Origin: a virus
Length of the DNA stretch: 64,000 bases
Reading direction: 5' to 3' (one strand)
IMG/VR virus record: IMGVR_UViG_3300025093_000011
Location: 49,199-113,198 of that record
The notes beneath the pieces were generated by a model. It had not been told where the DNA came from. It was given only the letters and a program-made list of their open reading frames with translations, and made no database searches. Below are positions 18,301 to 35,203 of the stretch, piece by piece; position 1 is the first letter of the stretch, and each line of letters starts with the position of its first letter. Position numbers and translations under genes: made by a program.

Positions 18301-19266
18301 ACAAGTAAACAAACTGCAGAACTTATAGCTGAAGAAAGAAAAGGACAAGGATTAAGTTCAGAAATTCAAGAGTTTAAGGTTATGCCGAGTGATGTTGCAG
18401 CAGTAGTTCCAGGAATAGAATCTGAACTTTTAATAAATATTAATACTGGTAATATTAATAGAATTTCAAATACCGCTAATAAACAAGAGAAAGCTTTAGA
18501 AGAACTTCTAAGTGAAAAAGAACAAATTCAAAATGAGCTTTCTAAAGTAGAAGCTGATTTAGCAAAAACTAAAAAAGATAAAAGTGAAGGAACTTTTCCT
18601 TTTGCAGATAGCATATATAACAAAGCTGTAAAAGACAAGACTACTAAAATTAAAAATTTAAAATATCAAATAGTAAAGCTTGATAAACAAATAGCTGCTT
18701 TAGATAAAAATAAAATAGATTCTACTGACTATGTTGCAAGTATTGAAAACATGCAAGATACTGGAGTCTATGATAATTTATTTGATACCTATCAGGCACT
18801 AGATAGAGATAAAGTAAACTTAAAACCATCTGAGTATAATATGTATAAATCTCAACTTGATGATTTAGCTACTTTAGCATTTAATCTAACAGAGTCTGAA
18901 AAAATTGATAGCTTTAAAAAGTATGATGTGGTAAATGTTCTTCAAGATAAAAATGGTAAACCTTATTTATCAAGTGGTGATCAGTTTAGAGTTGTTAATG
19001 CAAATGTAAAAGACAATACTATAACTGTTAAGAAAGCAGGTAAAGGAAATAATAAAACAAAAACTATAACTCTTGATGGTTATAAGAAAGCTATTCAAGT
19101 TTCTGATCCAGGAACTGGAGATAGAAGTTCATCTGAAATAGATAATAATAAAGAATCTAAAACAAAGTTTGAAGATTATATAGCAGATAAAGAAAATTTA
19201 GATAAATTAGATGGTCAGAATAATCAGCCTGAAGATTATAATGATGACAGTATTTTTAAATGTTAG
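12316..19266 (+). CDS. Giant ejected protein: N-terminal hydrophobic/amphipathic region, PD-(D/E)xK nuclease-like domain, ART-like domain
   Basis: 2316 aa. AGSLDLVIVD...IADLKTG...QQRAYA is RecB-type nuclease-like; VYRAG...VTTS...ESE is ART-like. The only Cys is the last residue. Confidence 0.75.
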   Translation: MAEELENQNMQDVANEQMNQQMMSQQDQANQQEQSVEQKVFNLDNTQNEPVDPNVTSTLGAAQLMNNLNTSFPALPVDNKFDIPAPQVQENVVGLPDQPPGPYAVKTQGDALVQMLRDQSERTSRTENKDFGMFYNYDNGPDGNAFYKRYAALVGTSDSLFGGKTFDNKTFDQIGFSPLRNNEANFNAHTTGWNDWGRMYRHSFPVLFKRGFVDGPKSMIKAFSGDFRGADLADAKEYEEAAAIGMSSKDGVGPWFNNTVMNFGYTAGIILEAIAEEFALSAMTLGSGGLGAGVQASRTAQLIKGIGKGLGKFGSGGKAVKDLLKATSTVPGARGLFNGVKKTGKFFNPLENTTSTISALYKGSNGGKYVTGIAAMSKTAGALYRDMRALNMAVSESRLEAGMVENKVFDKLYKKHYKDFGVRPTAKQQADMREQAKVASLSTFNSNAPIIYLTNRLTFRNVVSPKGGLRNFIKNTREDIYKIGATAGERNFGTLGKVIYNNSKKAFEFEANNLKGLAKSWWKNPGYKTAAKTLGYFKSNFSEGFQENFQEIVARSTEKYYTEAFETNVVSSSLYANAVNDMTFKIQTGSVPTNVYRDEIKNELSAEGFKTFASGFAMGMFSAPLNQAIPFLSTQYNRIYHKDEYVKWKRDKLKITKELAKDLNNINTGDLLNQRLMNVGMQDIIADIYKNGSKKEALDAELEGFVKTVSVMSKTGTFGVFIDKLEEMKTQTDEELIDDVGSSDIKEAPKYRERIDRTIARLKSIDENLKTAREKLENPVTDEMIETAADNKEKESLKTLQSAWNKSVTNFVFFNESFKDTLQRMNSIQTNYLKGDLLSDVDYAASKVIFEPTKRIKGQINILKSEIEIEENKDDTNKTKVRDLKNQIKYLEEYEKAYTEFNKFYNRGPLVAAAVKSLKESGVKEPTEEQIEKEVNKKVGKIDDEKKQVLILGNLKKAHDEYIKSLATDAAVPMLQENLDKAFNELLDFYKLGEESSMMANYINILHDPGEFLKLVTETQKAQEEAQAKMESLIKNLIDKQVKNVEHNQLLNTLASHAPPLFFAEGQFIDFYNNGIEPTHFLGIDGERYEKGSPEYGSGLALVKKQLELNKIKLSNVDTAKNIEMTPEMKKSVEMIKAVFADSMDIISSQGVYKFQGVDFERVSNIVNSIYGDYGYQDINNRLFGVEFNESFSDPVFNEKLQRQVNRVDESGNEIFNFNEATINSYIDKLAAANLPGFNTATINNLRSELLSLAEGNILNSNQKEIDKLTKLKENEQSQFRKENLDREIKKLQEESTITEDLNLERVKQVITDIIPRITYESGRQRGDTLDALVRDFFDASITDFTYDSTKITKEAFETLFGENGFLTKLKEAESRGDIYVFSKNLTLADNNLSDKDGNLLPPAAGSLDLVIVDKSGKVYIADLKTGSLNKWNSYQVASPGTKQQYNYKKYFQNSMQQRAYANLLYNKSNGMIDAETLILPVQTKEDPETGKVTLASKPEQGDLVAIPEILEEEMFIYADKDLKYIDEDNNLYMVLQIDKKIPRIDKGTDQKEMNDEEVLNDAIKELQSELEELRKDETPSQKRINEVELELKQTRSILAESKLTPEQKAKRDADAERTAYNKAVTKRKNKAFKEIKETKLIISDRNSSGYKTTYTDSNGEVYILNEIILPQKDKETGKYKPITEADKQRAYKKIQRRILNLADFDKSDYKRQAKVDNTIDNITGRTFPFFVGKDALGNPYEHNLTVLSVYVMDDGNYRIRAKNNVNQNGYDMVVTPDGDVVKHFREGRFSPSENEIIFSADSFARQKTEAEKEEEKDSVTDKRADIEKRREISLIVVDQLSEEEVKELDKYDEIEAAMPIAGDSETGYEAYYYPNINEEVYSTDDLSEEDSKDINKVKAWVNAKYDAELAALEAKGKPVAEPESYKNAVEEYKKTDLGGGTEAQIAKDNLIKEAKTKEGKAFVEDQVDRLEKNDDGTITVYRAGTIQEGNIPVTTSKQTAELIAEERKGQGLSSEIQEFKVMPSDVAAVVPGIESELLININTGNINRISNTANKQEKALEELLSEKEQIQNELSKVEADLAKTKKDKSEGTFPFADSIYNKAVKDKTTKIKNLKYQIVKLDKQIAALDKNKIDSTDYVASIENMQDTGVYDNLFDTYQALDRDKVNLKPSEYNMYKSQLDDLATLAFNLTESEKIDSFKKYDVVNVLQDKNGKPYLSSGDQFRVVNANVKDNTITVKKAGKGNNKTKTITLDGYKKAIQVSDPGTGDRSSSEIDNNKESKTKFEDYIADKENLDKLDGQNNQPEDYNDDSIFKC

Positions 19267-19279
19267 TAAATAAAAGGTA

Positions 19280-22200
19280 ATGATAAAGTGTACACTTGGA
19301 CAACCACAATTTGATTGGCTTTACGGTTCTACTAAAGCTGCAATAAAAGCTGAATTAGATAATGGTAAGTCTTTTAATGTTAGTTCATATATGGATTTCT
19401 TATATGAAAGAATTAAAAAGGCTGAAGATGCTGATAGAGCTGCTCAATTTTTAGCAGTTACTCCTGATATATTAGACCTTGTTATATCTAGAAATTATGC
19501 AGATAATATTGATAATATAACTGGAGTAGAGCAGTTAACTAAGTTAAGAGCTAAGTTCTCTAATCCTGAAAGTAACATTGATAATGTAATTGAATTTTTT
19601 GAAAAAGATAATAAAGTTAATTTAGAAATAAATAAACAAAATAAAATCAATACTAAAGGAGCTACAGTAAATAAAGTTGATACTAAATATAAATCAGGTG
19701 GTCCAAGACTTTTAGCTAATACAATTTTATCTGCAACTTTTCCTGAGTATAAATCTGAAGGAGGAAAGTTTGATCCAGAAACTATTAATCCTGAAAGAAA
19801 TCTTATAAATAAAACATTAAGTAAGATAGCTGAGTCAATTGATTTACAAAGTTCTCTTTTGCAGTTTCCTGAATATCAAGGTAAGAAGATTGCACTTAGA
19901 GCAGTTAACATGTCTAGTTTTACTTATGGTGGTACAGCAGAAGGTAGAACTAACTTTAGTAAATTAGATTCTACTACACAAGATGAGATCATGAGATCTA
20001 GAAAATTATCTAGTGCTGCTATAGCTAAATCTGATGTGACTCAAGTTAACAAAAGAGCTTTAATTGTAGTCATTGATGCAGAGACTGGTAAACCTTTGTC
20101 ATTTAATTTTAATGGAGATATTGTTGATTCTAAAGATATAAATGGAAAATATGTTTTTCAGTTTATGAGAGACATACAAAAAGTTGGAAATACTTATACT
20201 GTAAAAGATATTTATGGTATAGAAGATAGAGTTGATACATCAAACGTTGACCAAAAAGACCTTGAAGATGCTTATAAGTTAAAACAAAAAGCTTTAAGAG
20301 GTGATGGTGTAGTTCTAAACTTTTTAGGAATGACAGAAGGTGTAGATTCACAACTTACTAAAAAAGAGTTTAGTCTTAAAGAGCTTATGGATCAAGGACA
20401 GATAAAGGAAAAAGACTTAAGTACTTTAAAAGTTTTACCTAAAGATTCTTTTGGTTTTAAAGCTGGATCAACTGTTATAAAAATTAACGGTACTTATTAT
20501 AAGTTAAAAGGAAATAGAGTAACACCTGTAGTAGATCAAATTATAGATGTGCTCTTTTCTAAAAAGGTTGGAAGAAAACAGAAGATTGAATTCTATTCTC
20601 AGTTTATTCCGGAAAATAATAAACATAGATTAACTTATACAGCAAGGAGACATGTTATAACACCACTGAAAAACGGTAGAATAGCAATACAAATATTTGA
20701 TAAAGTTGCTAAAACAGAAGAAGGTTGGCCGACTGTTGATGGTAAAACAGAAGGTTTAACACATACTTTCTTTATTGCTGAAAACGGAGATGTAATTGAT
20801 AAAACTCCTATGGGTGAAGTTGTAGTTACTAATCCTGAATCAGTAGAAGAACTAAAAAATATATTTAGAGATGCATTAAATAATGCTTATGCTCCACCAA
20901 AAGGAGGTGCTAGTTTTATGCATTATGATACAGATCTTATAGAGAGACCTAATGACTTTTTAGAATATAGAGATGGAAAATTCCCATCTAGAAACTATAT
21001 AGATTTTTTAATGTCTCAACCTTCTATAGTAGAAATACAAGCTTCACAAAAAGGTTTCTTTAATAAGCAAATACTATTTGAAGAATCAAATAAAGAAGTT
21101 AAAAAGGAAGATCCTAATGCAGATCTTATGGGTCCTAAAAGAACTTTAAGTGCAGAAGAATTAGCATTGATTGACCTTTCTGAAAATTTAGAAAAGTATA
21201 GAAAACTTTTACCAAAACAAACTACAGAAAACTATGCTGTTCTTTCATATATTTTAGATCAAGTAACTGGAAATAGATATAGTGAACAACTTGCTAGAGA
21301 TGTATTTGATCTTTATAATGGGCCTTTACAAAATACTTTTACTAGTGCACAAGTAAAAGAATTTAATAGAAAGTTAAATAGTTTATTCCCACCTATTACA
21401 CCTGAGCAAAATAAAAAAGATATTGAAGATAATCAGGATGATATAAGTGGTCAAACATCTTTAGATCTTGATTTAGATAGATCTGGAAACTTAACTTCAG
21501 ATACTATTTCAAAAGAAGATTTAAAGAATGCAAATGACTTTTGGAAGAATAGTAAATTAGGTAAAAAGTTAAGTAAATATATTGAGCTTAACCGTGCTGC
21601 AAATATTGCAAACTCTGATGCATATGCAAAGTTCATTATTGATGGAGCACAATTATTAAATCCAGATGTCTTAGGTAGAATAGACATAAATAAAGCTAAG
21701 GGAACTTTAGTAGATGTGTATCATGAAGCTTTTCATGGATTTACACAGCTGTTTTTATCTAAACAAGAAAAGATTGATTTATATAATGCTGTTTTAAATT
21801 ATAAAGATAAGTCTGGAAGAAAGCCTTATGAAAATATGAGTGAGTTAGAAATTGAAGAATTTCTTGCAGAAGACTTCAGAACTTACATGAAAGGTAACTA
21901 TAAAAGAAAAAGCACTTTAATAAATAGAATTTTTAGAAGAATCTTAAATATTTTAAAAGCTATATTTGGTGTAAAAAGTAAACCAGTTGTATCTAGCTTA
22001 AAGGTTGATGCAATGGCTATACCTGCTGTAAATGAACTTTATACAAAACTTAATTTTTCTGAAAAGTATCCTGGCTTTTTAAATAAGTATAAAGCTAGTA
22101 TAGATAATGTTATGTTTTATCAACTAGACCGTGGTGTTACTGCTGTTGATAAATTAAAGAATGAAAAATATAGAAGAACTGTATTATCTAAACAAGATTC

Positions 22201-25200
22201 TGACTTTATGTCTAGTAATATAGATTCTATCATATCAGAAGAAATTGATAAGTTTTACGATGTTAAAGTTGGTAAGTCAACAAATTCAGAATTAATTGCT
22301 AAATATAAAGGAGCTAATATATCTGCTTTATTAAAACCAGGAAATAGAGCACAGATTTATAAAGAAGTTTTAAAAAGATTAAAAGACACTTTAGCTGAGT
22401 TGACTGATAAACATTCTACTAGTGAAAACACTATAAGTAAAATAGAAGATTTTGAAGGAATAGAAACTGCTGCCGTTGCAACCTTAGTAGTAAATGAAGA
22501 CGACTCTACTAAAGATCCTAATAAATATTTTTTCTTAAGTTCTCAAATTGATTCATTTGATAATCTAACTCCTAATATGAAAAGAGGAGATAGAATTAAA
22601 GGTGAAACTTGGCAAGGTGTTAAAATAGTAGGTGATTACTATGTGCATAATACTATTAAAGATGGTAGCAATAGAAAAGCAGAAATAATTGTAATATCTG
22701 AATTAGAAGATGCTGAAATTCAATTTGATAATTATATAAAAGCTGGTGCAAAAAAATATGAGAGAGTAGATGTTAAAGAAGCTACAGAGCCTGAATTAAC
22801 AATTGAAGATGAGAATGTTTTAAATAACATGCGTCTTTTAGAAACCTCAATAAAAAACTTTGGTGATCCTTTCTATGAATCAAAAGGTGGTAAACCCACA
22901 GGTCTTATTAAATATCATTTACAAAATTCAGATTTTGAATTTGGTAAAGTTAAGTATGTTGTTGAGGAAGAAGTAAATGAAAAAGGAGATGAATTAGGAG
23001 AATCAGACTCACCAGTATCTGAAGGTCTTGAAAGTATGGATCCTGAATATTATGATAATAAAAAGTCATTATATGATTTAGCAGATAGTGAAGTTATTTA
23101 TCTACTAAAAGGATTATTTAAAGTTGATTCTAATGGAAAGCCTATAAAGAATTCTTTAGGATTTAATGAAAGAGAAGACTTTAGAAGTACTTGGAACTTG
23201 GTTTCTAAAAGTATTGGAGGTATTCAAGATAGACAAAAAGCATTTGATATTTTAAAAGAAGAAGCAGAATTATTTCCTGCTTTAAAACAATTAGTTGATT
23301 ATAAACTGCCAGGCCCAGAAGGTATTAAGAATACTTATGCATTTGATATTAGCTCATCTTTTTGGCATACATTTGCTAGACCATCTGCAAAGTTTTGGCA
23401 AGTATCAGTTATAGAGGGTGAACCTGTACTACAAGAATCTTCTCCAGCAGCAGCTAAAGTATTAACTAATTTTAAAAGTTACTTTAAAAGCTTTCCTAAT
23501 CCTTATGTTAAAGATCAAACTTTAAACTTAGAGAAGCTTGTTAAGTCTTTTAGCAATAACAATGGAGAGATTAACTCTAAAGATTTTAAAAGTTTTTTAA
23601 ATGCTTTAGGTATTATTCTTGACAATACTAAAAAAATTAATACTGCAATAGATAACTCTGATGTTCAAATAAATAAATTATTTGATTTAGTTAAAGACAT
23701 AGAAACTATTTCGCAAAAAGAAACTTTAAGTAAGAATGAAAAAATACTAGTAAGTAGATTTACACAAGATCCTATTACTACATTACAAACTTTAGAATGG
23801 AGTAAATTTATGTATTTACTTCCTAGTTTTAAAACAGTTCAGATATTAGCACCAGTATCAACTATTAATTTATTTGCTAATTTGCAGTCTAAGTATGGAT
23901 TTGATTCTCCTGTAGAAAATATAATTCTTCCTGATGGCAATAAAGCTTTTGCTGTTACAAATCATAGTTCAGTTAGTTCTATGGTAGATGGTATAAATAA
24001 TTTAGATGAATTAGATAATGCTTGGGCAGATACTAATTCACATATGTCTTTTCTAGATCCTTCTAAAAACTTCTTTACAAATAGGTCAAAACTAATAGCA
24101 TCTATTTTTGATCCAGTTACCGGTAAAAAAATTAAAGGTAGAGAATTAAACTTTTTAGCTTTTGCAGGTTTAGAAGTGGTTGATGAAATGGTTGCTCAGG
24201 GAATTAATACTCCAGATCTAGTTCCTATAGATAAATTTTACTTAGCATATAATACAATGATGCAAAAAGGAATTGGTGAGTTTATTAGACATGCTGAGAA
24301 AAGAATGGCTTTTGGTATAGCACCAAATGAAAAAAGTCAAGTGATTTTAGATAATGGTTTAAAGTCCGGGACAGATGGTCTATGGATTTCTAAAGATTTA
24401 TTTCAAAATGAATTAGAAGTTAGTGAAGGTGAGTTAATGGCTATTGAAGGTTACTTACTAGATTATATAGGTGTTGAGTTTGATAGAATTAGTTTCTTTA
24501 AAAAGAATCCAGAAGTATTGAAAAATACAATAGGATTTAATAGAGATGTAAGAGGTACTAAAGCTGGTTTAACTTTTGGTTTAACAGATGATCTTTTAAC
24601 TAAAGATATTAAAAAGACTTTAACTGGATTAGCTGAAACTTTAGATGAGAATGAAGACATTGTTGAATACATAAAAGCAGATTCTAAACTTTATGATGAA
24701 ATTTCAAAAAGCATCACAAATTATTTTAATCAAGTAGCAGAAGAAACTTATAAAAACTATGTAAGTAAAATAAAATCTATACCTCAAGACATGGTTTCAG
24801 TAAAAGCTTTTGTCTATAATGATTACATTAATAAGTTTGAAATGTTTAATCTAATACATGGTGATGCTGTTCAGTTTAATCATAGTAAAGAACAAGCTAC
24901 TAAACGTGCACCAGGTTCTACATCTAATGGAGATAGCTTTGTTTATGATGAGTATGCACAAGACTTTATTAATCAGGTGTTTCAGGGAGAAAATGTTAAC
25001 ACATATGCTAAAGAGCTTAGTAAAGAACTAGATGATGAAACTATACAAGACTTTAACTTTGATGGTACTCTTAATACAGGAGTTATAAAAGACCCTAAAA
25101 GAAAGACTGTATATATGGATGAACTAGTTGAGGGTTGGACAGAAGCTTATGAAAAAGCAGGACTGACTCCACAGGAAATAAAATACAGACTTGAAAAAGA

Positions 25201-28200
25201 TCGTGATCCATATGAAGGAATTGAAGAAGCTGATGGAGCTGCATTTGCAACGTTAGATGCATACAGGATGCTTAAAAAATTAGGAGGTCCAAATGAATGG
25301 ACTAGTGAACAAGAAAACTTATATCAGCAAGTAATTAAAGGTGAAGATACTGATCCATTAAAAGTAAAGGAAGCATTTCCGGTTTATAAACTGCATTATT
25401 ATGGTCCCTTAATGAACAGTGAAATTAATACAACTCTTATGTATAAATTTGCTGTTGCACCTATCATACCTACAATTGCTAAATCAGATACAGAATTGTA
25501 TAAATTGCAGAAGTACATGATTGAAAATAATTTTCAAATGATTACAATGAGTACTGGTTCAAAAGTATCTACTTTAACAATGAATGGTGAATTTGATGAT
25601 ATATATCTACCTTCTGATAATGATTATTTTAAAGATAAATATATTAATCCAAATGCTAAATTAGCAAATAATAAGATTCATATTAGATATTTAAAAAATG
25701 TTACTAAGGTAGCATCTAAATTAAAAAAGACTATAACTAAACCAACTCAAGAAAGAATAATGACCATTAGTGGTTTATTCAAAGAAGGTGAAATTAATGA
25801 TAAACATAGAGAATTTTATAATGAATATAAGAATGCTGTTGATGCTTTAACAGATGCCTATGAACAAGAATTTTTAGATGAGATTGGTTATGAATTTAAA
25901 GATGGTAAATATGTCGGTAAGCTAGATAACTTAATAAGAGTTATAAGAGATGAGCTTGAATTAAAAGATGTACCTGTACAATTACGAGCTGCACTAGATG
26001 TAGATCTTAATGAACAACTTAGTAAAGATTTTTCATTACATCCTGAAGCAGGGTTAGTTGAAAAAATTGTAATTAATAGAATAGCAAAAGCACTTGTAAG
26101 ACAAAAAGTAAAAGGAGAAAAAGACATACAAGTTCCAAGTACTTTTTATAATGGACTATGGAGTTCTGAATATGAACAGGATCCAAAGATTATTAATGAT
26201 CCTAAAGAAATAAAAAAGTTTTTAGGTAGTAATAATTTACCTAGTTATAGAAGAGGTGATATATTAAAAGGTAAAAACGGTAAGATATTAAAAGATAAAG
26301 ATGGATATCCTCTAAGAGAAAAAACAAAGTTAGCTAAAATTGCTGTTTCTATTAACCATGGTGATTTTATTAATTTATTAAACCTTGAATACAAAGGTAA
26401 AAAGATTGGAACAAGACAAAACTTAAATAAACTTATAAAAGATGATAAGTTTTTAGAAGAGCATGGTGATAAAGTTAGAATAACAGGACCTAGGATTCCT
26501 GTAGATGATTTGAATCTAAAGGATGGTTTTGAAGTGTGGCACTTTTTAGATGCTTCTTCTGCTAATACTGTAGTAGTTCCTACAGAAATTGTTGCAAAAG
26601 AAGGTTCTGACTTTGATGTTGATGCATTATTTTTATCTTTCCCTACTATAAATAAAGATGGATCTTTTCCAATTAAAGTTGACTTTAAGAAAGAGTATGC
26701 AAAACTAAAGGCAGAAAATAAAAGTACTAAAGCATTAATTGAAAACCAAATAGGTTATGCTCAAAATGAATTAATTAGAACTGAGCTAAATATATTAACA
26801 TTAGCAGACAACTATGCAAATCTTACAAAACCAAATGCAACTTATCTAATATCTGATGAAGCTGAAGGTTTTTATAAAGAGTATGCTCAAGAGTTTGATC
26901 CTTTAGCTAATAAGAATACTACAGAAAGATATGTTAGTCCTACAACAGTAACTAATATTAATTATGATGTTAATAAGTTTGCTCAGTTATTAGGAGGTGC
27001 TAAACCTTTAGGGATGCTTGCTAAGAAAAAGAAACAACATGTTCTATATAAATATGCAGGTATGGCAATGCCTGGACAAATTCTTATTGATGATGATGTT
27101 TCATATAATTATGTACCTAACTTTAAGTTTGAATATCAAAAAACATCTGATGGTAGAATATCTTTTTCTCACGAGAATTCTGTAACAAATCAAGATATTT
27201 CAACTACATTTTCTCATAGCTTTCAAGGAGTTCTTGATAGAGGAAATAACCCATTCCCTGCATATGTGAACTTTACAAAAGATTCACTTCCTGTATTTAA
27301 TAGAATGTTAGAATCAGGAATAGATAAAAGCATTGCTTTAGCACTTATAAACCAACCAATAATTAAAAGGTTTCTTAATGATTTAAATGAAACTAAAGGT
27401 ATAGTGGCTGTATTAAATGGTCAGCAAAGCACTAAAGGTGAAGTTTTAGAAAACATTTTATTAGGTCTTTCAGATAATTTAAGAGCTATTGTATATAATG
27501 CAGTGGATGTTGCTAATGAAAACAGACTTGATAAAATATTAGATAGCAATGAGGTATCTGCACTAGATGGTAAGTTTTCTGTAAAATATCTTGATGGTTA
27601 CACTGAACAAACCGAATGGAAAACTTATAAAACTCTAAAGGGTTTAAAAACTTTCATTAAGAAAAATTCAGATAATAGTTATGAACTTGTTATTAATGAA
27701 AGTAAACTAGGAAATAAAACTAGAGTTTATCAAGAAAAAGGTTTAAGATTTTTTGCTTGGTCACCTAATGAGTTGGCAGATGTTTTATGGAAAGATTCAT
27801 ATGGTAGTAATGCTCCTACTGTAGAAGAGTTACAAAATAATATTTCTAAACTTGAACCAATTGCTTCTCAAAAATATTTGATGGATCAAGCTGCTTTATT
27901 ACTTTACTTTTTACAAATTCAAAACTTGTCTTCAGATTTTGAACAGTTTGAAATTGACTTTAATCCAGATACTAGTATTTTAGATACTATGGCTTCATTA
28001 GATATTTATGAAAGAAATTTAAATAGATTACTGAAGGATCCTTTTAGTAAATTAGATACAGCTGGTGCTAATAGATTAATGAAAGAGTCAGTTTTATCTT
28101 CAATGAATAAGTATGAGATTTATAAAGATATAGTAATTCCTTTATTTCCATTAAGATTAAATTCTAGAATAAACTTCTTCTTAGTAAATTCTCTTTTGGA

Positions 28201-30868
28201 TAAAAAATTTAAGAAAAGAGTTACTGATGTATATGGTACAAGAAAAGAAGATGTAGATAGATTTATTTCAAACTTTAATAATGCTATAGTAGATTACATT
28301 TATCAAAATACAATGTCAGGAATGCCTGATACTGTAGGATTACCTCAAACTATTCCTAATGAAAATCCTTATAACCTACCTGTTGAGTCTGCAGAATTAA
28401 GTTATGAAAAACCTGTTGAATTTACAGATAGTAAAATTAAAGTAGACTTTAAAAAGATTGATGCAATTTTTAAAACTAAAAGATATCTATCAAATAATAA
28501 AAGCAGTACATCTTTTGCTGAATTAGGTTTGGATACATTTAAACAGAATGAAGATCCTTTTACAAATAAAGATTCTTTTGTAAAATATTTAATTGAGAAA
28601 GAATCTTTGTATAATCAATATGATGTAAAGGATTTTAAAAATAAAACTGAATATGAACAATTTATTTCTAAAAGAGCTTTATTAAATAACTTTAATCATA
28701 AATACATAATGGGTAGAACTAAGTATTCTTATACTCAAGATGTTGTAAAGATGATACAGTCTAATAAATTACTTATGGAAAGATATCCTGTATTAAAACA
28801 ATTGAATAGTTCATTCTTTATGAAAGGTGTTGGATATAATCTATTAGAATTAAGAGATAAAGGTATAATTGATTCAAGTACTTCAAACTTATACAGCAAA
28901 CAGTTAACTCAACTTGGAGATGTGACAGTTAAGAAAGTAAAAGATAAAGCTAAAAATAAAGAGATTAGTGATATATTTAAAAACTTTTTCTTAATAACCC
29001 TATATCAGCATGGTATTGGAAGAGGTATTATAAACTTTCCACAGATACAGAATCCAGAAACTTTTATGGAAATTATGAGTAATACTACTAATTCTTTCTT
29101 AAATAAGACTCTTGAATCTAAAGGTAGTGGTGAGATTTTCAACTTTATTACCAATAGACTTTTAGCTCCTAATGTTTATAAGAACTATGTTCAAAGTGCT
29201 AATGCATTTAATGGTACAAATATAGAAACTGACTCAATTCCTACAGAGGATTCTCAGTTACAAAAGTTAGAAGAAGATATTACACTCATAGAGTTTGGTA
29301 TTTCTATAGGGGCTGCTACTGAAGCTGAGTTAAATGCAGCTAGGGAAAGACTTAATAAGTATTTGGATCAAAATAAACCTAAACGTCCTAATAACTTAAA
29401 TGTTAAAAAAGGTAGTGGAGTTAAAATTATATCTGAACCTTATGGAGTGGCAGTTATTGAAACAAATCCAACAAAAACATTACAGTCTAAGTTTTTAGAT
29501 CTTATTAAACCTCAAATAAAAGCTCAAGCTATAAAAGAGAATAAAGGTAGAAATGCTAACTTGATGTTCCAATTTGGATTAAGATGGGCTAGAGTAGAAC
29601 TTTCTGCTCAACCTTTAGAAATTAATTCTCCATCATATGATTCTAATGCTAGAAAGAAAGAGATTGCAGCACTAGAAAAATCTAATAAAGATAAAACTGA
29701 TAAGTTTGTGTATGCATATCATCAACTAGATCAGAATGGAACTCTATTACCGGAACTATCAGAACTACAACCTATAATAGATGATATACAAAAATCTTTA
29801 GGAATAGATATGTCTAATTATGATGCAATGATTGGTAACATATATTTACCAGGACAAGCTGTAGCTACACATAAAGATGTTACTGAAAGTAAATCTGCAG
29901 AAAATTATCCTGTAATAGTATATACACTTGGTGCAGGAAATGCAATAAACATTTATGAAAATGTTAAAGATCCAGGTAAAGCATCATTCGCATCTGATAA
30001 AAAAGTTACTATACCAACTAAAGCAGGTACTATATATACATTTGGTTTAGAAGGAAAAGGTAGATTTGAATTAGCACATGATACACCAAGAGCTATACAG
30101 AAAGGTGAAGCATTAGAACCTATCACTCTTCCTGATGGTAAAGTAGTAAAAGATTATACTATTACACTTACTTTTAGAAGAGCAGCTGATTTAGATCCAG
30201 GAATGCCTAAGACACCTAAATCATTAATATCTACTCCAACTGAAGAAGTTGAAGAAGTAGATATACAACCTATTGATATATCATCTAATAGTAGAGGTCT
30301 TGGAGGTGCTCTTACTAACCCTACAGAATTATCTAAATCAAAAGGTAATATTGCTATGTCATATCCTGTTGAAGTTAGAGGTAAAAAATATCAAGATGCT
30401 GAGGCAGCATACCAAGCTTTAAAAGATAAAAAAGAGAGTACTACTAAACCTTCTAAAGATAAAAGTAGTAACTTTGCATTGATGACAGAAATATTAACTA
30501 ATAAACTAGATACTTATCCAAATCTATTTTCAGAGATTCAAAACAGAGGAGGTCTAGCATTTCTTAATGTATCAGTTCATCAACCTACTAATAAGAACAC
30601 TGTATGGGAAAGTGGAGGTCAGAATTGGTTTATAGAATCTTTGGCTGAAGCCTTTGTTGCAACTCAAGCAACATATAACTTGCAATCTATACAAGGTAGT
30701 TTATTTATTGATCCTTCAATATCTAATTATTATAATAGCTTAAGTAAGAAAGAAAAAGAAGATCTTGAATTAAGATATGGAAATGAACAGTTTGCTCAAG
30801 CTCAATGGGATAGTGCTCCTGCAAGTTTCACAATGGAACAATTTATTGAAATATTAAAATGTAAGTAA
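19280..30868 (+). CDS. Virion-packaged DNA-dependent RNA polymerase (crAss-like, double-psi beta-barrel type) with zincin, AlkB-like and NADAR-like domains
   Basis: 3862 aa. RIP...GSDFDVD catalytic motif (DFDVD at 26609-26623), comparable to DFDID of phi14:2 gp66. Also ADGAAF, HEAFH zincin, HKD...H...LTFR and YQDAEAAYQALK. Confidence 0.88.
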   Translation: MIKCTLGQPQFDWLYGSTKAAIKAELDNGKSFNVSSYMDFLYERIKKAEDADRAAQFLAVTPDILDLVISRNYADNIDNITGVEQLTKLRAKFSNPESNIDNVIEFFEKDNKVNLEINKQNKINTKGATVNKVDTKYKSGGPRLLANTILSATFPEYKSEGGKFDPETINPERNLINKTLSKIAESIDLQSSLLQFPEYQGKKIALRAVNMSSFTYGGTAEGRTNFSKLDSTTQDEIMRSRKLSSAAIAKSDVTQVNKRALIVVIDAETGKPLSFNFNGDIVDSKDINGKYVFQFMRDIQKVGNTYTVKDIYGIEDRVDTSNVDQKDLEDAYKLKQKALRGDGVVLNFLGMTEGVDSQLTKKEFSLKELMDQGQIKEKDLSTLKVLPKDSFGFKAGSTVIKINGTYYKLKGNRVTPVVDQIIDVLFSKKVGRKQKIEFYSQFIPENNKHRLTYTARRHVITPLKNGRIAIQIFDKVAKTEEGWPTVDGKTEGLTHTFFIAENGDVIDKTPMGEVVVTNPESVEELKNIFRDALNNAYAPPKGGASFMHYDTDLIERPNDFLEYRDGKFPSRNYIDFLMSQPSIVEIQASQKGFFNKQILFEESNKEVKKEDPNADLMGPKRTLSAEELALIDLSENLEKYRKLLPKQTTENYAVLSYILDQVTGNRYSEQLARDVFDLYNGPLQNTFTSAQVKEFNRKLNSLFPPITPEQNKKDIEDNQDDISGQTSLDLDLDRSGNLTSDTISKEDLKNANDFWKNSKLGKKLSKYIELNRAANIANSDAYAKFIIDGAQLLNPDVLGRIDINKAKGTLVDVYHEAFHGFTQLFLSKQEKIDLYNAVLNYKDKSGRKPYENMSELEIEEFLAEDFRTYMKGNYKRKSTLINRIFRRILNILKAIFGVKSKPVVSSLKVDAMAIPAVNELYTKLNFSEKYPGFLNKYKASIDNVMFYQLDRGVTAVDKLKNEKYRRTVLSKQDSDFMSSNIDSIISEEIDKFYDVKVGKSTNSELIAKYKGANISALLKPGNRAQIYKEVLKRLKDTLAELTDKHSTSENTISKIEDFEGIETAAVATLVVNEDDSTKDPNKYFFLSSQIDSFDNLTPNMKRGDRIKGETWQGVKIVGDYYVHNTIKDGSNRKAEIIVISELEDAEIQFDNYIKAGAKKYERVDVKEATEPELTIEDENVLNNMRLLETSIKNFGDPFYESKGGKPTGLIKYHLQNSDFEFGKVKYVVEEEVNEKGDELGESDSPVSEGLESMDPEYYDNKKSLYDLADSEVIYLLKGLFKVDSNGKPIKNSLGFNEREDFRSTWNLVSKSIGGIQDRQKAFDILKEEAELFPALKQLVDYKLPGPEGIKNTYAFDISSSFWHTFARPSAKFWQVSVIEGEPVLQESSPAAAKVLTNFKSYFKSFPNPYVKDQTLNLEKLVKSFSNNNGEINSKDFKSFLNALGIILDNTKKINTAIDNSDVQINKLFDLVKDIETISQKETLSKNEKILVSRFTQDPITTLQTLEWSKFMYLLPSFKTVQILAPVSTINLFANLQSKYGFDSPVENIILPDGNKAFAVTNHSSVSSMVDGINNLDELDNAWADTNSHMSFLDPSKNFFTNRSKLIASIFDPVTGKKIKGRELNFLAFAGLEVVDEMVAQGINTPDLVPIDKFYLAYNTMMQKGIGEFIRHAEKRMAFGIAPNEKSQVILDNGLKSGTDGLWISKDLFQNELEVSEGELMAIEGYLLDYIGVEFDRISFFKKNPEVLKNTIGFNRDVRGTKAGLTFGLTDDLLTKDIKKTLTGLAETLDENEDIVEYIKADSKLYDEISKSITNYFNQVAEETYKNYVSKIKSIPQDMVSVKAFVYNDYINKFEMFNLIHGDAVQFNHSKEQATKRAPGSTSNGDSFVYDEYAQDFINQVFQGENVNTYAKELSKELDDETIQDFNFDGTLNTGVIKDPKRKTVYMDELVEGWTEAYEKAGLTPQEIKYRLEKDRDPYEGIEEADGAAFATLDAYRMLKKLGGPNEWTSEQENLYQQVIKGEDTDPLKVKEAFPVYKLHYYGPLMNSEINTTLMYKFAVAPIIPTIAKSDTELYKLQKYMIENNFQMITMSTGSKVSTLTMNGEFDDIYLPSDNDYFKDKYINPNAKLANNKIHIRYLKNVTKVASKLKKTITKPTQERIMTISGLFKEGEINDKHREFYNEYKNAVDALTDAYEQEFLDEIGYEFKDGKYVGKLDNLIRVIRDELELKDVPVQLRAALDVDLNEQLSKDFSLHPEAGLVEKIVINRIAKALVRQKVKGEKDIQVPSTFYNGLWSSEYEQDPKIINDPKEIKKFLGSNNLPSYRRGDILKGKNGKILKDKDGYPLREKTKLAKIAVSINHGDFINLLNLEYKGKKIGTRQNLNKLIKDDKFLEEHGDKVRITGPRIPVDDLNLKDGFEVWHFLDASSANTVVVPTEIVAKEGSDFDVDALFLSFPTINKDGSFPIKVDFKKEYAKLKAENKSTKALIENQIGYAQNELIRTELNILTLADNYANLTKPNATYLISDEAEGFYKEYAQEFDPLANKNTTERYVSPTTVTNINYDVNKFAQLLGGAKPLGMLAKKKKQHVLYKYAGMAMPGQILIDDDVSYNYVPNFKFEYQKTSDGRISFSHENSVTNQDISTTFSHSFQGVLDRGNNPFPAYVNFTKDSLPVFNRMLESGIDKSIALALINQPIIKRFLNDLNETKGIVAVLNGQQSTKGEVLENILLGLSDNLRAIVYNAVDVANENRLDKILDSNEVSALDGKFSVKYLDGYTEQTEWKTYKTLKGLKTFIKKNSDNSYELVINESKLGNKTRVYQEKGLRFFAWSPNELADVLWKDSYGSNAPTVEELQNNISKLEPIASQKYLMDQAALLLYFLQIQNLSSDFEQFEIDFNPDTSILDTMASLDIYERNLNRLLKDPFSKLDTAGANRLMKESVLSSMNKYEIYKDIVIPLFPLRLNSRINFFLVNSLLDKKFKKRVTDVYGTRKEDVDRFISNFNNAIVDYIYQNTMSGMPDTVGLPQTIPNENPYNLPVESAELSYEKPVEFTDSKIKVDFKKIDAIFKTKRYLSNNKSSTSFAELGLDTFKQNEDPFTNKDSFVKYLIEKESLYNQYDVKDFKNKTEYEQFISKRALLNNFNHKYIMGRTKYSYTQDVVKMIQSNKLLMERYPVLKQLNSSFFMKGVGYNLLELRDKGIIDSSTSNLYSKQLTQLGDVTVKKVKDKAKNKEISDIFKNFFLITLYQHGIGRGIINFPQIQNPETFMEIMSNTTNSFLNKTLESKGSGEIFNFITNRLLAPNVYKNYVQSANAFNGTNIETDSIPTEDSQLQKLEEDITLIEFGISIGAATEAELNAARERLNKYLDQNKPKRPNNLNVKKGSGVKIISEPYGVAVIETNPTKTLQSKFLDLIKPQIKAQAIKENKGRNANLMFQFGLRWARVELSAQPLEINSPSYDSNARKKEIAALEKSNKDKTDKFVYAYHQLDQNGTLLPELSELQPIIDDIQKSLGIDMSNYDAMIGNIYLPGQAVATHKDVTESKSAENYPVIVYTLGAGNAINIYENVKDPGKASFASDKKVTIPTKAGTIYTFGLEGKGRFELAHDTPRAIQKGEALEPITLPDGKVVKDYTITLTFRRAADLDPGMPKTPKSLISTPTEEVEEVDIQPIDISSNSRGLGGALTNPTELSKSKGNIAMSYPVEVRGKKYQDAEAAYQALKDKKESTTKPSKDKSSNFALMTEILTNKLDTYPNLFSEIQNRGGLAFLNVSVHQPTNKNTVWESGGQNWFIESLAEAFVATQATYNLQSIQGSLFIDPSISNYYNSLSKKEKEDLELRYGNEQFAQAQWDSAPASFTMEQFIEILKCK

Positions 30869-31740
30869 TGGCTTGTATAAATAAATCAAATAAAACATAT
30901 CAAAATATAGAGAAACGTTATGGTGTATTCTTAGCTGAAGTCTATACAAGAAGTCATCCTAAGAATCTTTCTATGAAAGCTAATGATGATTTTTATATTC
31001 CTTCATTAAGTGAGGTATCTAAAATTGTTAAAGCTGAAGGTATTGATACTATAGAAAACTTTGATGCAAATATGAAACAAAATCCTTATATGACTGAAGA
31101 GTTTATAAGGGATTCATTAAAAGGAGTTATTAGAAAGCATAGAGGTGAATACTATGTAATTAAAGGTATAGATGTAGGACCTTTGCAAACAGCAATCTCT
31201 ATAAAAGAAATCTTTGAAAAAAATTATAGAGTAATGAATACTCTACAATCAAAGTATCCTCAAATAATATCTTTAAGACAAGGACGTAAGCCAAGAAGTT
31301 TTAAAGTTATTATAACTCCTCAGCAAAAACCTGAAGAGGTTGAAGAAAGAACTATAGAACCTAGCTTAAGAGCATATGCTAGATTAGTAGAGCTTAATGA
31401 TGGAGCACAACCCAAGATGTTTCAGAGTGGTCCGCATAGATGGCAAAGAGTCGGAAATAATCTATATACTCTTATAGATGAAGACACTGGAGCTGTGTTT
31501 ATGCCAAATGTTAATTTAGTAACAGGGATGCAAGAAGTTGAATCAAATACAACTCCTGTAAATCCTGAATATAAAAAGTATGTACTAAACCAAGTTAAAC
31601 CACTTAATACATCAGCTATGCAAGTATACTTAGCTGAAAGGGGTTATAATATGAATTTAATTATAAAAAACTTAGAATCTGCAGAAACTCAAGAAGAACT
31701 TCTTAGAGTATATAAAGATTTTGTTAAAACTGTATGTTGA
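30868..31740 (+). CDS. Hypothetical protein of the ejected-protein cluster
   Basis: 290 aa, TAATG-coupled to the RNAP stop. Cys only at residues 3 and 290. Confidence 0.75.
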   Translation: MACINKSNKTYQNIEKRYGVFLAEVYTRSHPKNLSMKANDDFYIPSLSEVSKIVKAEGIDTIENFDANMKQNPYMTEEFIRDSLKGVIRKHRGEYYVIKGIDVGPLQTAISIKEIFEKNYRVMNTLQSKYPQIISLRQGRKPRSFKVIITPQQKPEEVEERTIEPSLRAYARLVELNDGAQPKMFQSGPHRWQRVGNNLYTLIDEDTGAVFMPNVNLVTGMQEVESNTTPVNPEYKKYVLNQVKPLNTSAMQVYLAERGYNMNLIIKNLESAETQEELLRVYKDFVKTVC

Positions 31741-31741
31741 T

Positions 31742-34700
31742 ATGGCAACTTGTCCTAATAAAAATAGTAAAGAATGGAAAGAGATTCTTTCAGAAGCACA
31801 AAACAATGAACAAATTGCAATGGATCTTTGGATTAAAAAAGGATTCAATCAGCAAGAGGATTTAAACGAAGATGCTAAAGAGGGAGATCTAACTAATGAG
31901 GAAATAGAAGCACTGCAAGAGCTTGATCCTATGCAAAGATTAGCTCAAAAGACTAAAGTATATCTTCAAAAAAGAATTAATATTCTTTCAAATCAGAAAG
32001 TTAAAGACGTAGATAGAAAAACAAATAGGCTCAAAGAACTTTTACAAAACATGAAAGCTGTAGAGGAAGTTGAGTCAATAAATCTATTTATCGAAGAAGC
32101 ATATAAAATGTCTCAACAGTTAAAGCAAAGAACAAAACAATTTTTGATTGATGTAAAGAAAGAGGATGTTGATAGAAAAGAACTTATAGAAGCTTTAACT
32201 AATATAAACGAGTATGCAAACAGTTATAATATATTAGATGAGATATCTAGTGAAGATCTTTTTGATTTCTTTCAGTTAGACGAAGACGCTGAACAAAAAA
32301 TGTTTGAAGAAGATGAAGAAGGGAATGTGAAATTAAGTATGAAAGAAAAACTAGAAAGAGCAGTAACTACTAGAAATATCATACGACAAAGAATGCTGGA
32401 TGAAGGCATACCTTTATTAGCAGAGTTTTTATTAGATGCAAGATCAAAATACAGTGCTGAAGGTTTAGAAAAAGAAATTGCAGCAAAACGAGCAGAGATT
32501 GAAAAAATAAAGAATGATGTAACTAATGAAAAAAGAAGAGATAGACTTATTCAAAAAGTAGAAAGACAAATAGATCTTTTAAGCACGAAGGCTCAAGATA
32601 AAGATGGTATGATTAAGATACTAAAAGAAGCTGCTATAGAAGAAGGAGTCTTAGACTTTTTAGTAGGGCCATTAATTAGTTCACCTGATAGTGCTGTTGC
32701 ATTATTTGCTAAAGCAATTAAAGATCAGTTAGAGTTTGCTAGATTAAAAGATATTAATATTAAAAGAGAATTGACTGACGAATATTTAGAATACAGAAGT
32801 CAAGCTCCGGGATCAACTGACAATCCTCAAAAATTTAATGAAGGTTTATATACTGTAGTAGAAGTACCTGTATATGAAACGGTGCAATCAAAAAAGAATC
32901 CTAACTATTATTATAAGACGGTTAAGAAAGATGAGGCTGGTAATATAGTATATAAGAAAGAGGTACACTTTGTTGAAAGAATAGATAGAAAGAAATTTAA
33001 AGCTGCACAAGCCCAATGGTGGGCTGAAAACCCTAAGCCGCATGCAGATAAAATACCTGAGCAATTAACATCATCAGAAAAACAAGATGTTAGAAATTGG
33101 GAAAATAAAAAGAAGCAATGGTATAAAGAAAACATGACAGAGAAATCTGCAGAAGCTATTAAAGCTATTGATGATAAGATGAAGAATGAAAGAGATGCAG
33201 AAATCATTAGTAAAAAACAATACGCAAACTGGTTTAACAATGAAAGGTTTAAAGAGATACAAGAACCTTCTTCAAAGTATATAAGTGAGAAGTGGTTAGC
33301 AATGTATAACAAAGATGGTAAGCCTAAGAATGCAATGGGAGAATATCACAAAGCACTTACCGATACTTACTACGGTGCTCAAGAGTTATTACCTGAATCA
33401 CAACGAACAGGTTCTAGAATACCATCTATTCCTAAGAAAGATTTAGAAAGGTTATTAGATGAAGGAATTAGTAATCTAGTAAAGACTAACATTAAAGAAA
33501 CTATTTCTATACAAGCTTATGATACAGAATACGGTGGCAACATTGCAACTTTGGGAGGGGAAGCTGTGAAGTTCTTACCTATATTCTTTACACAAAATAT
33601 TGATGAATCAGATATAAGCTATGATTTATTAAGTTCTGTTTTATTATTTAGTCAAATGGCAAATAAGTATGACGCACTGAATGAAGTTAATGGTGAGATA
33701 TCTTTAATGAAACAAGTTATATCTAAAAGAGCTAATCCGAAATTTGATGAGGTATCTGGTAAGAAACAATTTGATGTAGTGGCTAAGAGATTTGGCCTTG
33801 AAGAATTTATTGTTAAGAGTGGAGAAAGTTTTACTAAAAAACATTTAGATGCATTTATTGATATGATTGTATATGGAGAGATGCAAAAGAAAGAAGTTCT
33901 CTTGGGTTTACAGTTTGATAAAATAACTAACACAATAACCGGATTTTCTGCACTAACATCTATTGCAGCTGATTTACTTAAAGGTGTGGCTAATAACTTA
34001 CAAGGTAATATACAATTAATTATAGAAGCATCGGGAGCAGAATTCTTTAGTGCTGCTGACTTAGCAAAATCTAAAGTTCAGTTCATGGAGAATGTTGCGG
34101 GAACATTAGGAGACTTTGGTAAACCTAGTCCTACAAGTTGGATGGGTAGACTTAATGAGTTATATGACCCTATACAAGGAGACTTTACTGATAAGTATGG
34201 AAGAATTGTTTCTGCAAGTGTAGCAAATAAACTATTTAGAACTAATACATTATTCTTTAATCAGTACTTTGGGGAATATGAAATACAAGTTTCAGGAATG
34301 CTAGCATTAATGAATGCTACAGAAGTTAGAGATAAGGAGAATGGTACTAATATAACTATGTATGAAGCACATAAGAAATATGGTCCTGATTCAGGTGATT
34401 TAAATGGGAAAGTTGAGTGGATTACTCAGGATAAAGATGGGAATAATGTTTATGAGGATTTTAATGAAAAGCATAGGAGATCTTTTCAAGATAGAGTTCA
34501 TGCATTAAGTAAAAAAATGCATGGTATATACAATACCTTTGATAAAGGTACTGCACAAAAGCAATCTTTGGGCCGTCTAGCTTTGATGTATAGAAAGCAT
34601 ATGTATCCTGGATTTAAAAGAAGATGGAAACAGTATTCTTGGGATGAGGAACTTGGTTCAGGGACTGAGGGTCACTATAGAACCTTTTGGAATACTTTTG

Positions 34701-35203
34701 TTAGAGATTTAAGAACTTATAAATTAAATGTTGCAAAAGAATGGAGTACATATACTCCTATGCAAAAAGCAAATATCAGAAGAACTCTTTCTGAGATAGG
34801 TGTGTTCTTAACAATTGTAGGTTTGATAGGTATTCTTTCAGCTATGGCTTCTGATGATGGAGAGGATAAAGAAAAGTATAAAGACAATTATCTTTATAAC
34901 TTTCTTCTGTATGAAATGGTTAGGATGAGATCAGAGACAGCTCAGTATATTTCTCCTAAAGATATGTGGAGAACTATAAAATCACCTTCTGCAGCTTTAA
35001 GTACCTTAAGTAGATTCATAAGATTTACAAATCAGATACTACCTTGGAATATTACAGAAGAGTATAAAAGAAAGTCAGGTATTTGGGAGAAAGGAGATAA
35101 CAAAGCATGGGCATACTTTATTAAATTAATTGGTCTTCCTGGTTATAATATTAAACCACAAGATGCAGTTAAAGTTTATGAGAACTTATCTAGAGCAATT
35201 TAA
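31742..35203 (+). CDS. Large ejected protein with a C-terminal transmembrane segment (last gene of the RNAP cluster)
   Basis: ATG at 31742 (MATCPNKN, 1153 aa), 1 nt after the upstream TGA, is preferred over the TTG at 31721. Hydrophobic stretch IGVFLTIVGLIGILSAMAS. Confidence 0.78.
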   Translation: MATCPNKNSKEWKEILSEAQNNEQIAMDLWIKKGFNQQEDLNEDAKEGDLTNEEIEALQELDPMQRLAQKTKVYLQKRINILSNQKVKDVDRKTNRLKELLQNMKAVEEVESINLFIEEAYKMSQQLKQRTKQFLIDVKKEDVDRKELIEALTNINEYANSYNILDEISSEDLFDFFQLDEDAEQKMFEEDEEGNVKLSMKEKLERAVTTRNIIRQRMLDEGIPLLAEFLLDARSKYSAEGLEKEIAAKRAEIEKIKNDVTNEKRRDRLIQKVERQIDLLSTKAQDKDGMIKILKEAAIEEGVLDFLVGPLISSPDSAVALFAKAIKDQLEFARLKDINIKRELTDEYLEYRSQAPGSTDNPQKFNEGLYTVVEVPVYETVQSKKNPNYYYKTVKKDEAGNIVYKKEVHFVERIDRKKFKAAQAQWWAENPKPHADKIPEQLTSSEKQDVRNWENKKKQWYKENMTEKSAEAIKAIDDKMKNERDAEIISKKQYANWFNNERFKEIQEPSSKYISEKWLAMYNKDGKPKNAMGEYHKALTDTYYGAQELLPESQRTGSRIPSIPKKDLERLLDEGISNLVKTNIKETISIQAYDTEYGGNIATLGGEAVKFLPIFFTQNIDESDISYDLLSSVLLFSQMANKYDALNEVNGEISLMKQVISKRANPKFDEVSGKKQFDVVAKRFGLEEFIVKSGESFTKKHLDAFIDMIVYGEMQKKEVLLGLQFDKITNTITGFSALTSIAADLLKGVANNLQGNIQLIIEASGAEFFSAADLAKSKVQFMENVAGTLGDFGKPSPTSWMGRLNELYDPIQGDFTDKYGRIVSASVANKLFRTNTLFFNQYFGEYEIQVSGMLALMNATEVRDKENGTNITMYEAHKKYGPDSGDLNGKVEWITQDKDGNNVYEDFNEKHRRSFQDRVHALSKKMHGIYNTFDKGTAQKQSLGRLALMYRKHMYPGFKRRWKQYSWDEELGSGTEGHYRTFWNTFVRDLRTYKLNVAKEWSTYTPMQKANIRRTLSEIGVFLTIVGLIGILSAMASDDGEDKEKYKDNYLYNFLLYEMVRMRSETAQYISPKDMWRTIKSPSAALSTLSRFIRFTNQILPWNITEEYKRKSGIWEKGDNKAWAYFIKLIGLPGYNIKPQDAVKVYENLSRAI

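Follow-up and report, generated by a model that had tools for sequence, protein, structure and literature searches.

The window analysed here is a stretch of 64,000 nucleotides from a virus (IMG/VR record IMGVR_UViG_3300025093_000011, positions 49,199 to 113,198), the final 64 kb of a 113-kb record, and its proteins were obtained by calling and translating open reading frames (ORFs). Our subject is a row of four adjoining genes on the plus strand, encoding proteins of 2316, 3862, 290 and 1153 amino acids (aa), and the few cysteines that these proteins contain. By homology, the four proteins are assigned to the virion cargo module of a distant crAss-like phage and comprise an A-region protein, a protein with a zincin-like domain and an RNA polymerase, a small adaptor and a gp49-like protein; they are numbered in gene order as members 1 to 4 of a chain (Table 1). 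An alternative TTG start at 31721 is possible for the 1153-aa ORF, and the ATG at 31742 is the start that it has in common with its homologues.

Table 1. Features of the cargo locus, with positions in the 64-kb window
Feature	Position	Strand	Cysteines or basis
Upstream presumed cargo protein, 1080 aa, outside the chain and marking its start	9066..12308	+	Zero cysteines
Chain member 1, 2316 aa, N-terminal part of the A cargo region	12316..19266	+	Only cysteine is the final residue, codon 19261-19263
Chain member 2, 3862 aa, zincin-like domain and two-barrel virion RNA polymerase	19280..30868	+	Only cysteines are residue 4 (19289-19291) and residue 3861 (30860-30862)
Zincin-like domain of member 2, residues 773-932, HExxH at 815	21596..22075	+	Alignment
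DFDxD catalytic motif of the RNA polymerase, residue 2444 of member 2	26609..26623	+	Alignment A1
Chain member 3, 290 aa, adaptor link	30868..31740	+	Cysteine 3 (30874-30876) and cysteine 290, the final residue (31735-31737)
Chain member 4, 1153 aa, gp49-like	31742..35203	+	Only cysteine is residue 4 (31751-31753); none at the C-terminus

Together, the four proteins hold six cysteines in 7621 residues, and each lies no more than four residues from a terminus that faces the next protein in the row. The original prediction had claimed this number, the codon positions and the placement at the ends, and translation of the ORFs matched all three exactly, with zero other cysteine codons in the four frames. 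At the cysteine content of the non-virion (replication module) ORFs of the same window (1.28%), ~98 cysteines would be expected in 7621 residues, and the probability that six randomly placed cysteines would all fall within the 24 facing-terminal positions is ~1e-15. Given the exact positions and this probability, the pattern in the window is not a product of chance. The presumed cargo proteins encoded upstream in the window (1084, 1655 and 1080 aa) contain no cysteine.

The portal and terminase of the phage match PHROGs 6547 and 6681. The portal shares 34% identity with that of the unclassified Leptolyngbya phage Lbo-JY46 and 22-26% with those of crassviruses and Cellulophaga phages, and on such protein similarity the phage is a distant relative. 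The core of the 3862-aa protein aligns with the polymerases of phi14:2, crAss001, p-crAssphage, DAC15, cr118_1 and cr271_1, with an invariant DFDxD motif (D545, F546, D547 and D549 in alignment A1), and the protein matches the phi14:2 polymerase by BLASTP at E 8e-13; the match of the A1 profile to PDB 6VR4 holds by construction, because phi14:2 itself is included in A1. Its zincin-like domain aligns to crAss001 gp47 and to the fused proteins of cr118_1 and cr114_1, and 1629 residues separate its HExxH and DFDxD motifs. In the 1153-aa protein, the stretch from residue 496 to residue 1136 is homologous to crAss001 gp49 (E 1e-52) and to the third phi14:2 cargo protein (E 2e-41), and residues 171-1016 of the 2316-aa protein align to residues 89-889 of proteins that carry the A region and the RNA polymerase in a single polypeptide. 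Searches of the four chain proteins in Pfam and PHROGs gave only sub-threshold matches, megablast and tblastn searches of a phage collection with the region, the adaptor and the 2316-aa protein gave no matches, and phmmer with the three large proteins against PDB sequences gave nothing meaningful. One of the sub-threshold Pfam matches, to PF13532 (2OG-Fe(II) oxygenase superfamily; E 1.3e-4, 22.7 bits vs a cut-off of 31.2), covers residues 3444-3607 of the 3862-aa protein (window 29600-30100), and may be an AlkB-like domain carried near the C-terminus of the polymerase protein as extra cargo.

The homologous proteins in crAss001 and phi14:2 are known virion components. Crassphage crAss001 virions contain gp47, gp49 and gp50, which were placed in the capsid cargo zone (Bayfield 2023, PMC10172136), the phi14:2 cargo proteins were found by virion mass spectrometry, and the three cargo proteins form a single polyprotein in some phages (Drobysheva 2020, preprint, doi 10.1101/2020.03.07.982082). 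The window shares with these two phages the zincin-like domain, the DFDxD two-barrel polymerase, the gp49-like protein and, as shown below, the same pattern of terminal cysteines. It differs in having four members, with the 290-aa adaptor inserted, and in a first break that lies ~770 residues before the zincin-like domain and not after it. In crAss001 this domain is close to the C-terminus of gp47, which precedes the polymerase, whereas in the window it is inside the polymerase protein; by alignment, the cargo module of the window is cut at other places than that of crAss001.

Relatives of the locus were retrieved with the polymerase-core alignment A1 at 20-49% identity, and 80 of the 393 confirmed IMG/VR loci were taken; the counts that follow refer to 77 non-redundant loci, the window included. 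A junction between consecutive proteins was scored as paired when a cysteine was present in the last 10 residues of the upstream protein and another in the first 7 residues of the downstream protein. Cysteines were found on both sides at 99 of 108 junctions. The proteins contain 268 cysteines among 435,565 residues, 216 of them terminal, and the resulting internal frequency of 0.012% would place a terminal cysteine at ~0.1% of ends, vs the ~92% of junctions observed. The N-terminal cysteine is residue 3 in 43 cases, residue 4 in 39, residue 5 in 17 and residue 6 in 8, and the C-terminal one is mostly 1-4 residues from the end (the last, second-last or third-last residue in 79/107). The gaps between chain genes range from 0 to 170 nucleotides (nt), and the pattern persists at 20-25% identity. 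Seven small proteins of several length classes (169-506 aa) are encoded between the giants, and each has exactly two cysteines, one per end.

The outer ends of the chain are almost free of cysteine. None of the 53 complete last members has a C-terminal cysteine, and only 2 of 37 first members have an N-terminal one (L044 and L053); the upstream protein of L044 has a cysteine at -19, beyond the 10-residue counting window, and in L053 the true upstream member was probably missed. The proteins encoded before the chain have 4 cysteines in 20,938 residues. As to the unpaired junctions, those of L040, L053 and L081 have unrelated genes inserted between chain members, the L037 exception is likely a start miscall and that of L091 likely a frameshift, the cysteine of L044 is 19 residues away from the end, and one further exception is the 1080-aa upstream protein of the window, which was wrongly taken into the chain by the size criterion. 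The inserts (L040 11711-13050, L053 10024-10641 and L081 13834-17965) possibly encode homing endonucleases; they carry internal cysteines, including some CxxC pairs, and the chain proteins that flank them keep their terminal cysteines.

The same arrangement was found in the reference phages. In crAss001, gp47 (2341 aa) has only cysteine 2339, gp50 (2412 aa) has cysteines 5, 1334 and 2404, and gp49 (1349 aa) has only cysteine 5. The gp47 gene is encoded on the strand opposite to gp50 and gp49, yet the terminal pattern holds, which excludes an artefact of the junction at the nucleotide level; a nucleotide-level junction signal was likewise rejected on account of gaps of up to 170 nt in crAss002. 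In phi14:2, the 1797-aa protein has cysteine only as its final residue, the 2180-aa protein has cysteines 3 and 2179, and the 1421-aa protein has cysteine 3. DAC15 and IAS virus show this three-protein pattern together with a few internal cysteines. The polymerase of IAS virus (NC_049978, 7893-16875) is annotated as two overlapping coding sequences (837 and 2159 aa, the first named 'molybdenum carrier') around a stretch of N, which is probably a sequencing artefact and not a real split.

Where cargo genes are fused, the junction cysteines are absent. In p-crAssphage and cr271_1, in which the polymerase and the gp49-like protein are one polypeptide, the first protein has a C-terminal cysteine and the fusion has cysteine 3 and none at its C-terminus. 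The equivalent fusion in crAss002 also has a C-terminus without cysteine and follows a first protein with a C-terminal one; its annotated start (gp33; MN917146, 9006-9104) lacks a cysteine, an in-frame M-S-C 32 codons downstream matches the start of p-crAssphage gp44, and the annotated start is, from this comparison, probably wrong. Lbo-JY46 encodes a 1552-aa protein with cysteine as its final residue, followed by a 2748-aa fusion with cysteine 4 only. In the same phage (PP438436, 2674-4698), a 674-aa protein whose gene lies four genes before the chain has one cysteine only, at position 5; the preceding protein is free of cysteine and there is no obvious partner. The fusions of the A region and the polymerase in cr114_1 and cr118_1 lack the N-terminal cysteine and have one 3-4 residues from the C-terminus, and the only cysteine of the gp49-like protein that follows is at position 5 or 3. 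The cargo genes of cr114_1, L084 and L094 contain a great many in-frame TAG codons (69 in one ORF) and are readable only with TAG as a sense codon; when they are read in this way, the rule for the terminal cysteines holds there as well.

The position of the first break varies between lineages, while the spacing from the zincin-like domain to the DFDxD motif is 1400-1700 residues in nearly all loci. This break is 640-1300 residues upstream of the zincin-like domain in the clade of the window, 160-250 residues upstream of it in L044, L045 and L053, and downstream of it in crAss001, phi14:2, L032-L037, L041, L042 and L089; it is absent from 27 fused A and polymerase proteins of IMG/VR loci. The break state changes at least nine times on a polymerase-core tree, which was made quickly with FastTree and has some long branches. 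As read from the proteins, the cysteine pairs follow the break points wherever these are. The comparison shows, for the sequences surveyed, a strongly selected rule of one cysteine per facing end and none inside, independent of strand, spacing and break position. The expectation that terminal cysteines are present in pairs at gene junctions was thereby borne out by a count over orthologues that included split and fused genes: the pairs are conserved in ~90 relatives, and they are gained and lost with gene fission and fusion.

The 290-aa adaptor consists of two domains. In an AlphaFold2 model (mean predicted local distance difference test score, pLDDT, of 78) these cover roughly residues 1-155 and 162-290, with a weak linker (156-161) between them, and Foldseek of this model against the PDB gave no match at E 0.001 or better. 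With a profile built from five links of this kind, the N-terminal half of the adaptor was identified as the domain that opens the last protein in L017 (E 1.5e-38) and L087, and the C-terminal half as the stretch that closes the polymerase protein in L020 (E 7e-21), which finishes on the same terminal cysteine. Within the clade of the window the halves are thus either free-standing or fused, to the polymerase end or to the beginning of the last protein, and cysteines are present only at the actual breaks. The earlier suggestion that the 290-aa protein could be an inserted extra link is confirmed. Homologues of the adaptor in the protein collection, at 95-98% and 40% identity, all have both terminal cysteines and no other, and the adaptor and its 40% homologue were also used for two scans of IMG/VR, which returned no matches.

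Residues next to the cysteines are conserved within clades: many last proteins carry C-P-N at the start, and the polymerase protein has a conserved helix at its C-terminus. This suggests a specific docking of the ends. Complex prediction that combined the adaptor with the C-terminal 300 residues of the polymerase protein and the N-terminal 400 residues of the last protein, for which the alignments were small, gave a median score of 0.28 against a mark of 0.32, which counts neither for nor against such docking.

The nearest known case is in the pre-ejectosome of the cyanopodophage A4 (Anabaena phage A-4L), where a disulfide between gp27 Cys1715 and gp26 Cys5 was seen by cryo-electron microscopy (cryo-EM; PNAS 2025, PMC12002296). 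In the A-4L genome, gp27 (1717 aa) has its sole cysteine at 1715 and gp26 (1114 aa) its sole cysteine at 5, so two consecutive giant ejection proteins, with single cysteines at -3 of the first and position 5 of the second, are joined inside the capsid. The same kind of placement is found at the three junctions of the window. A4 differs in having a single pair, in being a 42-kb phage of another family and in lacking a virion RNA polymerase, and its bond was treated as a local stabilising detail and not as a chain rule that tracks fission and fusion (PMC12002296). BLASTP of A-4L gp25-gp29 against crAss-type proteins gave no match at E below 0.1, and the zincin profile gave only non-significant matches to A4 proteins; by these searches, the resemblance is one of pattern and not of detectable ancestry.

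The reading that we favour, and regard as having somewhat better than even prospects, is a cargo thread linked from C-terminus to N-terminus, in which the proteins are packaged as a head-to-tail chain, threaded out of the particle and parted in the reducing cytoplasm. Inside the packaged, non-reducing particle, the C-terminal cysteine of each protein would bond the N-terminal cysteine of the next, most likely through a disulfide formed after the ends have docked non-covalently. The product would be one head-to-tail thread of ~7600 residues that has the same polarity throughout, like a single polypeptide. Because the stubs beyond the cysteines average 1.8 and 2.9 residues in the survey, each junction would be hardly thicker than a peptide chain, and partly unfolded proteins joined in this way could go through the tail channel; the crAss001 cargo was itself argued to need partial unfolding for tail passage (PMC10172136). 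Internal cysteines would give loops or wrong joints, and we propose that they were purged for this reason. The reducing cytoplasm would then open the links and free the polymerase and its partners.

Fused relatives would gain equal continuity through peptide bonds. The fused forms keep the same domain order, both as A+B (cr114_1, cr118_1 and the 27 IMG/VR loci) and as B+C (p-crAssphage gp44, crAss002 gp33 and Lbo-JY46), and have no junction cysteines; separation of their parts would need a protease and not reduction. The polarity, the short stubs, the purge of internal cysteines and the exchange with fusion all fit a thread that runs through a narrow channel and comes apart in a reducing cytoplasm. 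We infer that the facing cysteines bond each other, with a disulfide as the simplest chemistry for one cysteine per side, and the disulfide is plausible because the A4 pair of like pattern is a solved one. Other structural disulfides exist in crAss001 particles (PMC10172136). The conserved, paired terminal cysteines of the original prediction stood, and its disulfide gained plausibility from the A4 cryo-EM structure; the bond in crAss-like virions, the threading in gene order and the uncoupling by reduction remain proposals.

Several points weigh against this thread. The habitat of gut phages is low in redox potential, so natural oxidation is not assured. The bond proposed for crAss-like phages is drawn from the sequence pattern, which does not reveal the pairing partners, so that intramolecular or out-of-order pairing is conceivable. 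A few junction cysteines are 8-19 residues away from the end. The crAss001 atlas did not resolve gp47, gp50 or gp49 and mentions none of their cysteines (PMC10172136). Finally, phage N4 (Schitoviridae) resembles the crAss-like phages in ejecting a giant virion RNA polymerase with partners that have no internal cysteine, but its proteins (NC_008720, 14524-27524; the polymerase gp50 of 3500 aa, gp51 of 644 aa and gp52 of 150 aa) have zero cysteines and lack the terminal ones too, which makes a covalent clasp impossible. N4 ejects its cysteine-free giants nonetheless, so a covalent chain is not required for the ejection of giant proteins; the chain would be a specific solution of the crAss-like lineage and not a necessity, and cysteine avoidance in ejected proteins seems to reach beyond crAss-like phages.

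Among the alternatives, the strongest, which we consider unlikely though still a serious contender, is that disulfides between the proteins only staple the packed pre-ejectosome or cargo body within the capsid, for assembly, stoichiometry or DNA spooling; they would have no role in threading and need not last through ejection. The A4 bond was reported to stabilise a C-terminal helix that is docked into a cleft of the adjoining protein, in a five-fold ring (PMC12002296), and the clade-conserved residues beside the cysteines suggest specific docking, both as a staple would have it. A staple could sit anywhere on an interface, however, and leaves unexplained the extreme terminal placement, the single C-to-N polarity and the free replacement of the pair by peptide fusion.

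It is improbable that the terminal cysteines bond non-neighbours instead, be it a second copy of their own protein, the portal, the inside of the capsid or the other end of the same chain member, with no chain in gene order. Sequence alone cannot assign the partners, and members 2 and 3, with cysteines at both ends, could cyclise. In essentially all loci, however, the first member has no N-terminal cysteine and the last no C-terminal one, and both cysteines of a pair are lost together on fusion and gained together on fission; anchoring or self-pairing predicts neither this nor the cysteine-free outer ends, and the upstream cargo proteins offer almost no cysteine to bond with.

Slightly less probable still is a bridging metal (zinc or copper) liganded by the facing cysteines, or another link that is not a disulfide, such as an enzyme-made thioether or thioester. 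A cysteine on either side of a break fits any clasp with two ligands, and the chain does contain a zincin-like domain, but there is one cysteine per end and no conserved histidine or second cysteine nearby to complete a metal site, and the only solved example of the pattern, in A4, is a plain disulfide (PMC12002296). Two other uses of a terminal cysteine were considered and rejected: lipidation of the lipobox type, as there is no signal peptide and the cysteine is at position 3-6, and intein or native-ligation chemistry, as the cysteine is not residue 1 or 2 and intein motifs are absent.

That the pattern has no function, as a by-product of cysteine depletion with start and stop context or of shared ancestry, can be dismissed almost entirely: ejected proteins may be free of cysteine for other reasons, as in N4, and many of the loci are mutually related, but the pattern still holds at identities of 20-25%, for genes on opposite strands, across gaps of 0-170 nt and at non-homologous breaks that arose repeatedly, terminal cysteines are far more frequent than the ~0.1% of ends that the internal frequency predicts (~92% of junctions), and the survey does not show them to be freely replaceable among natural variants.

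A literature search found no description of the terminal-cysteine rule in Crassvirales, with the single pair of A4 as the nearest published case (PMC12002296), and the cargo cysteines go unmentioned in both Bayfield 2023 (PMC10172136) and Drobysheva 2020 (doi 10.1101/2020.03.07.982082). The original prediction knew of no description of such a mechanism, which agrees with this search for Crassvirales; A4 gp27-gp26 is a partial precedent. The crAss001 atlas names as open how crassviruses pass several large proteins through a narrow tail and in which order (PMC10172136). The cargo of these podophage-like viruses consists of several proteins of 150-450 kDa, and a strict sequence rule gives a concrete hypothesis on their passage. 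The rule also explains the free splitting and fusing of cargo genes, suggests a redox switch for starting early transcription, and is useful to annotators in marking true starts and the limits of the cargo chain. A bolder extension of the threading proposal, which we put forward tentatively and think on balance doubtful, is that crAss-like phages inject the polymerase and its partners as a reducible 'polyprotein by disulfide' of ~0.9 MDa, with modular end-clasps, and that reduction by the host is the switch for release and activation. If this were true, genes could be divided or joined, and adaptor or cargo links could be added, without loss of continuity, and the most abundant human gut phages would have a general, evolvable principle of protein delivery.

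Some further observations concern cysteine and redox genes elsewhere in these phages. In p-crAssphage (BK010471, 22875-24142), two thioredoxin genes, one of them truncated, are annotated in the early region directly downstream of the cargo genes, and these are of possible interest for redox-controlled release. In the contig of the window, the presumed tail-fibre or receptor-binding proteins encoded upstream of the window (contig 24415-34189) are very rich in cysteine (e.g., 51 in 724 aa and 21 in 559 aa), in contrast to the cysteine-free internal proteins of the same phage. An 822-aa protein without a PHROG match (window 6532-9000) has 8 cysteines amid otherwise cysteine-free giants, and it may be an external part of the tail or muzzle.

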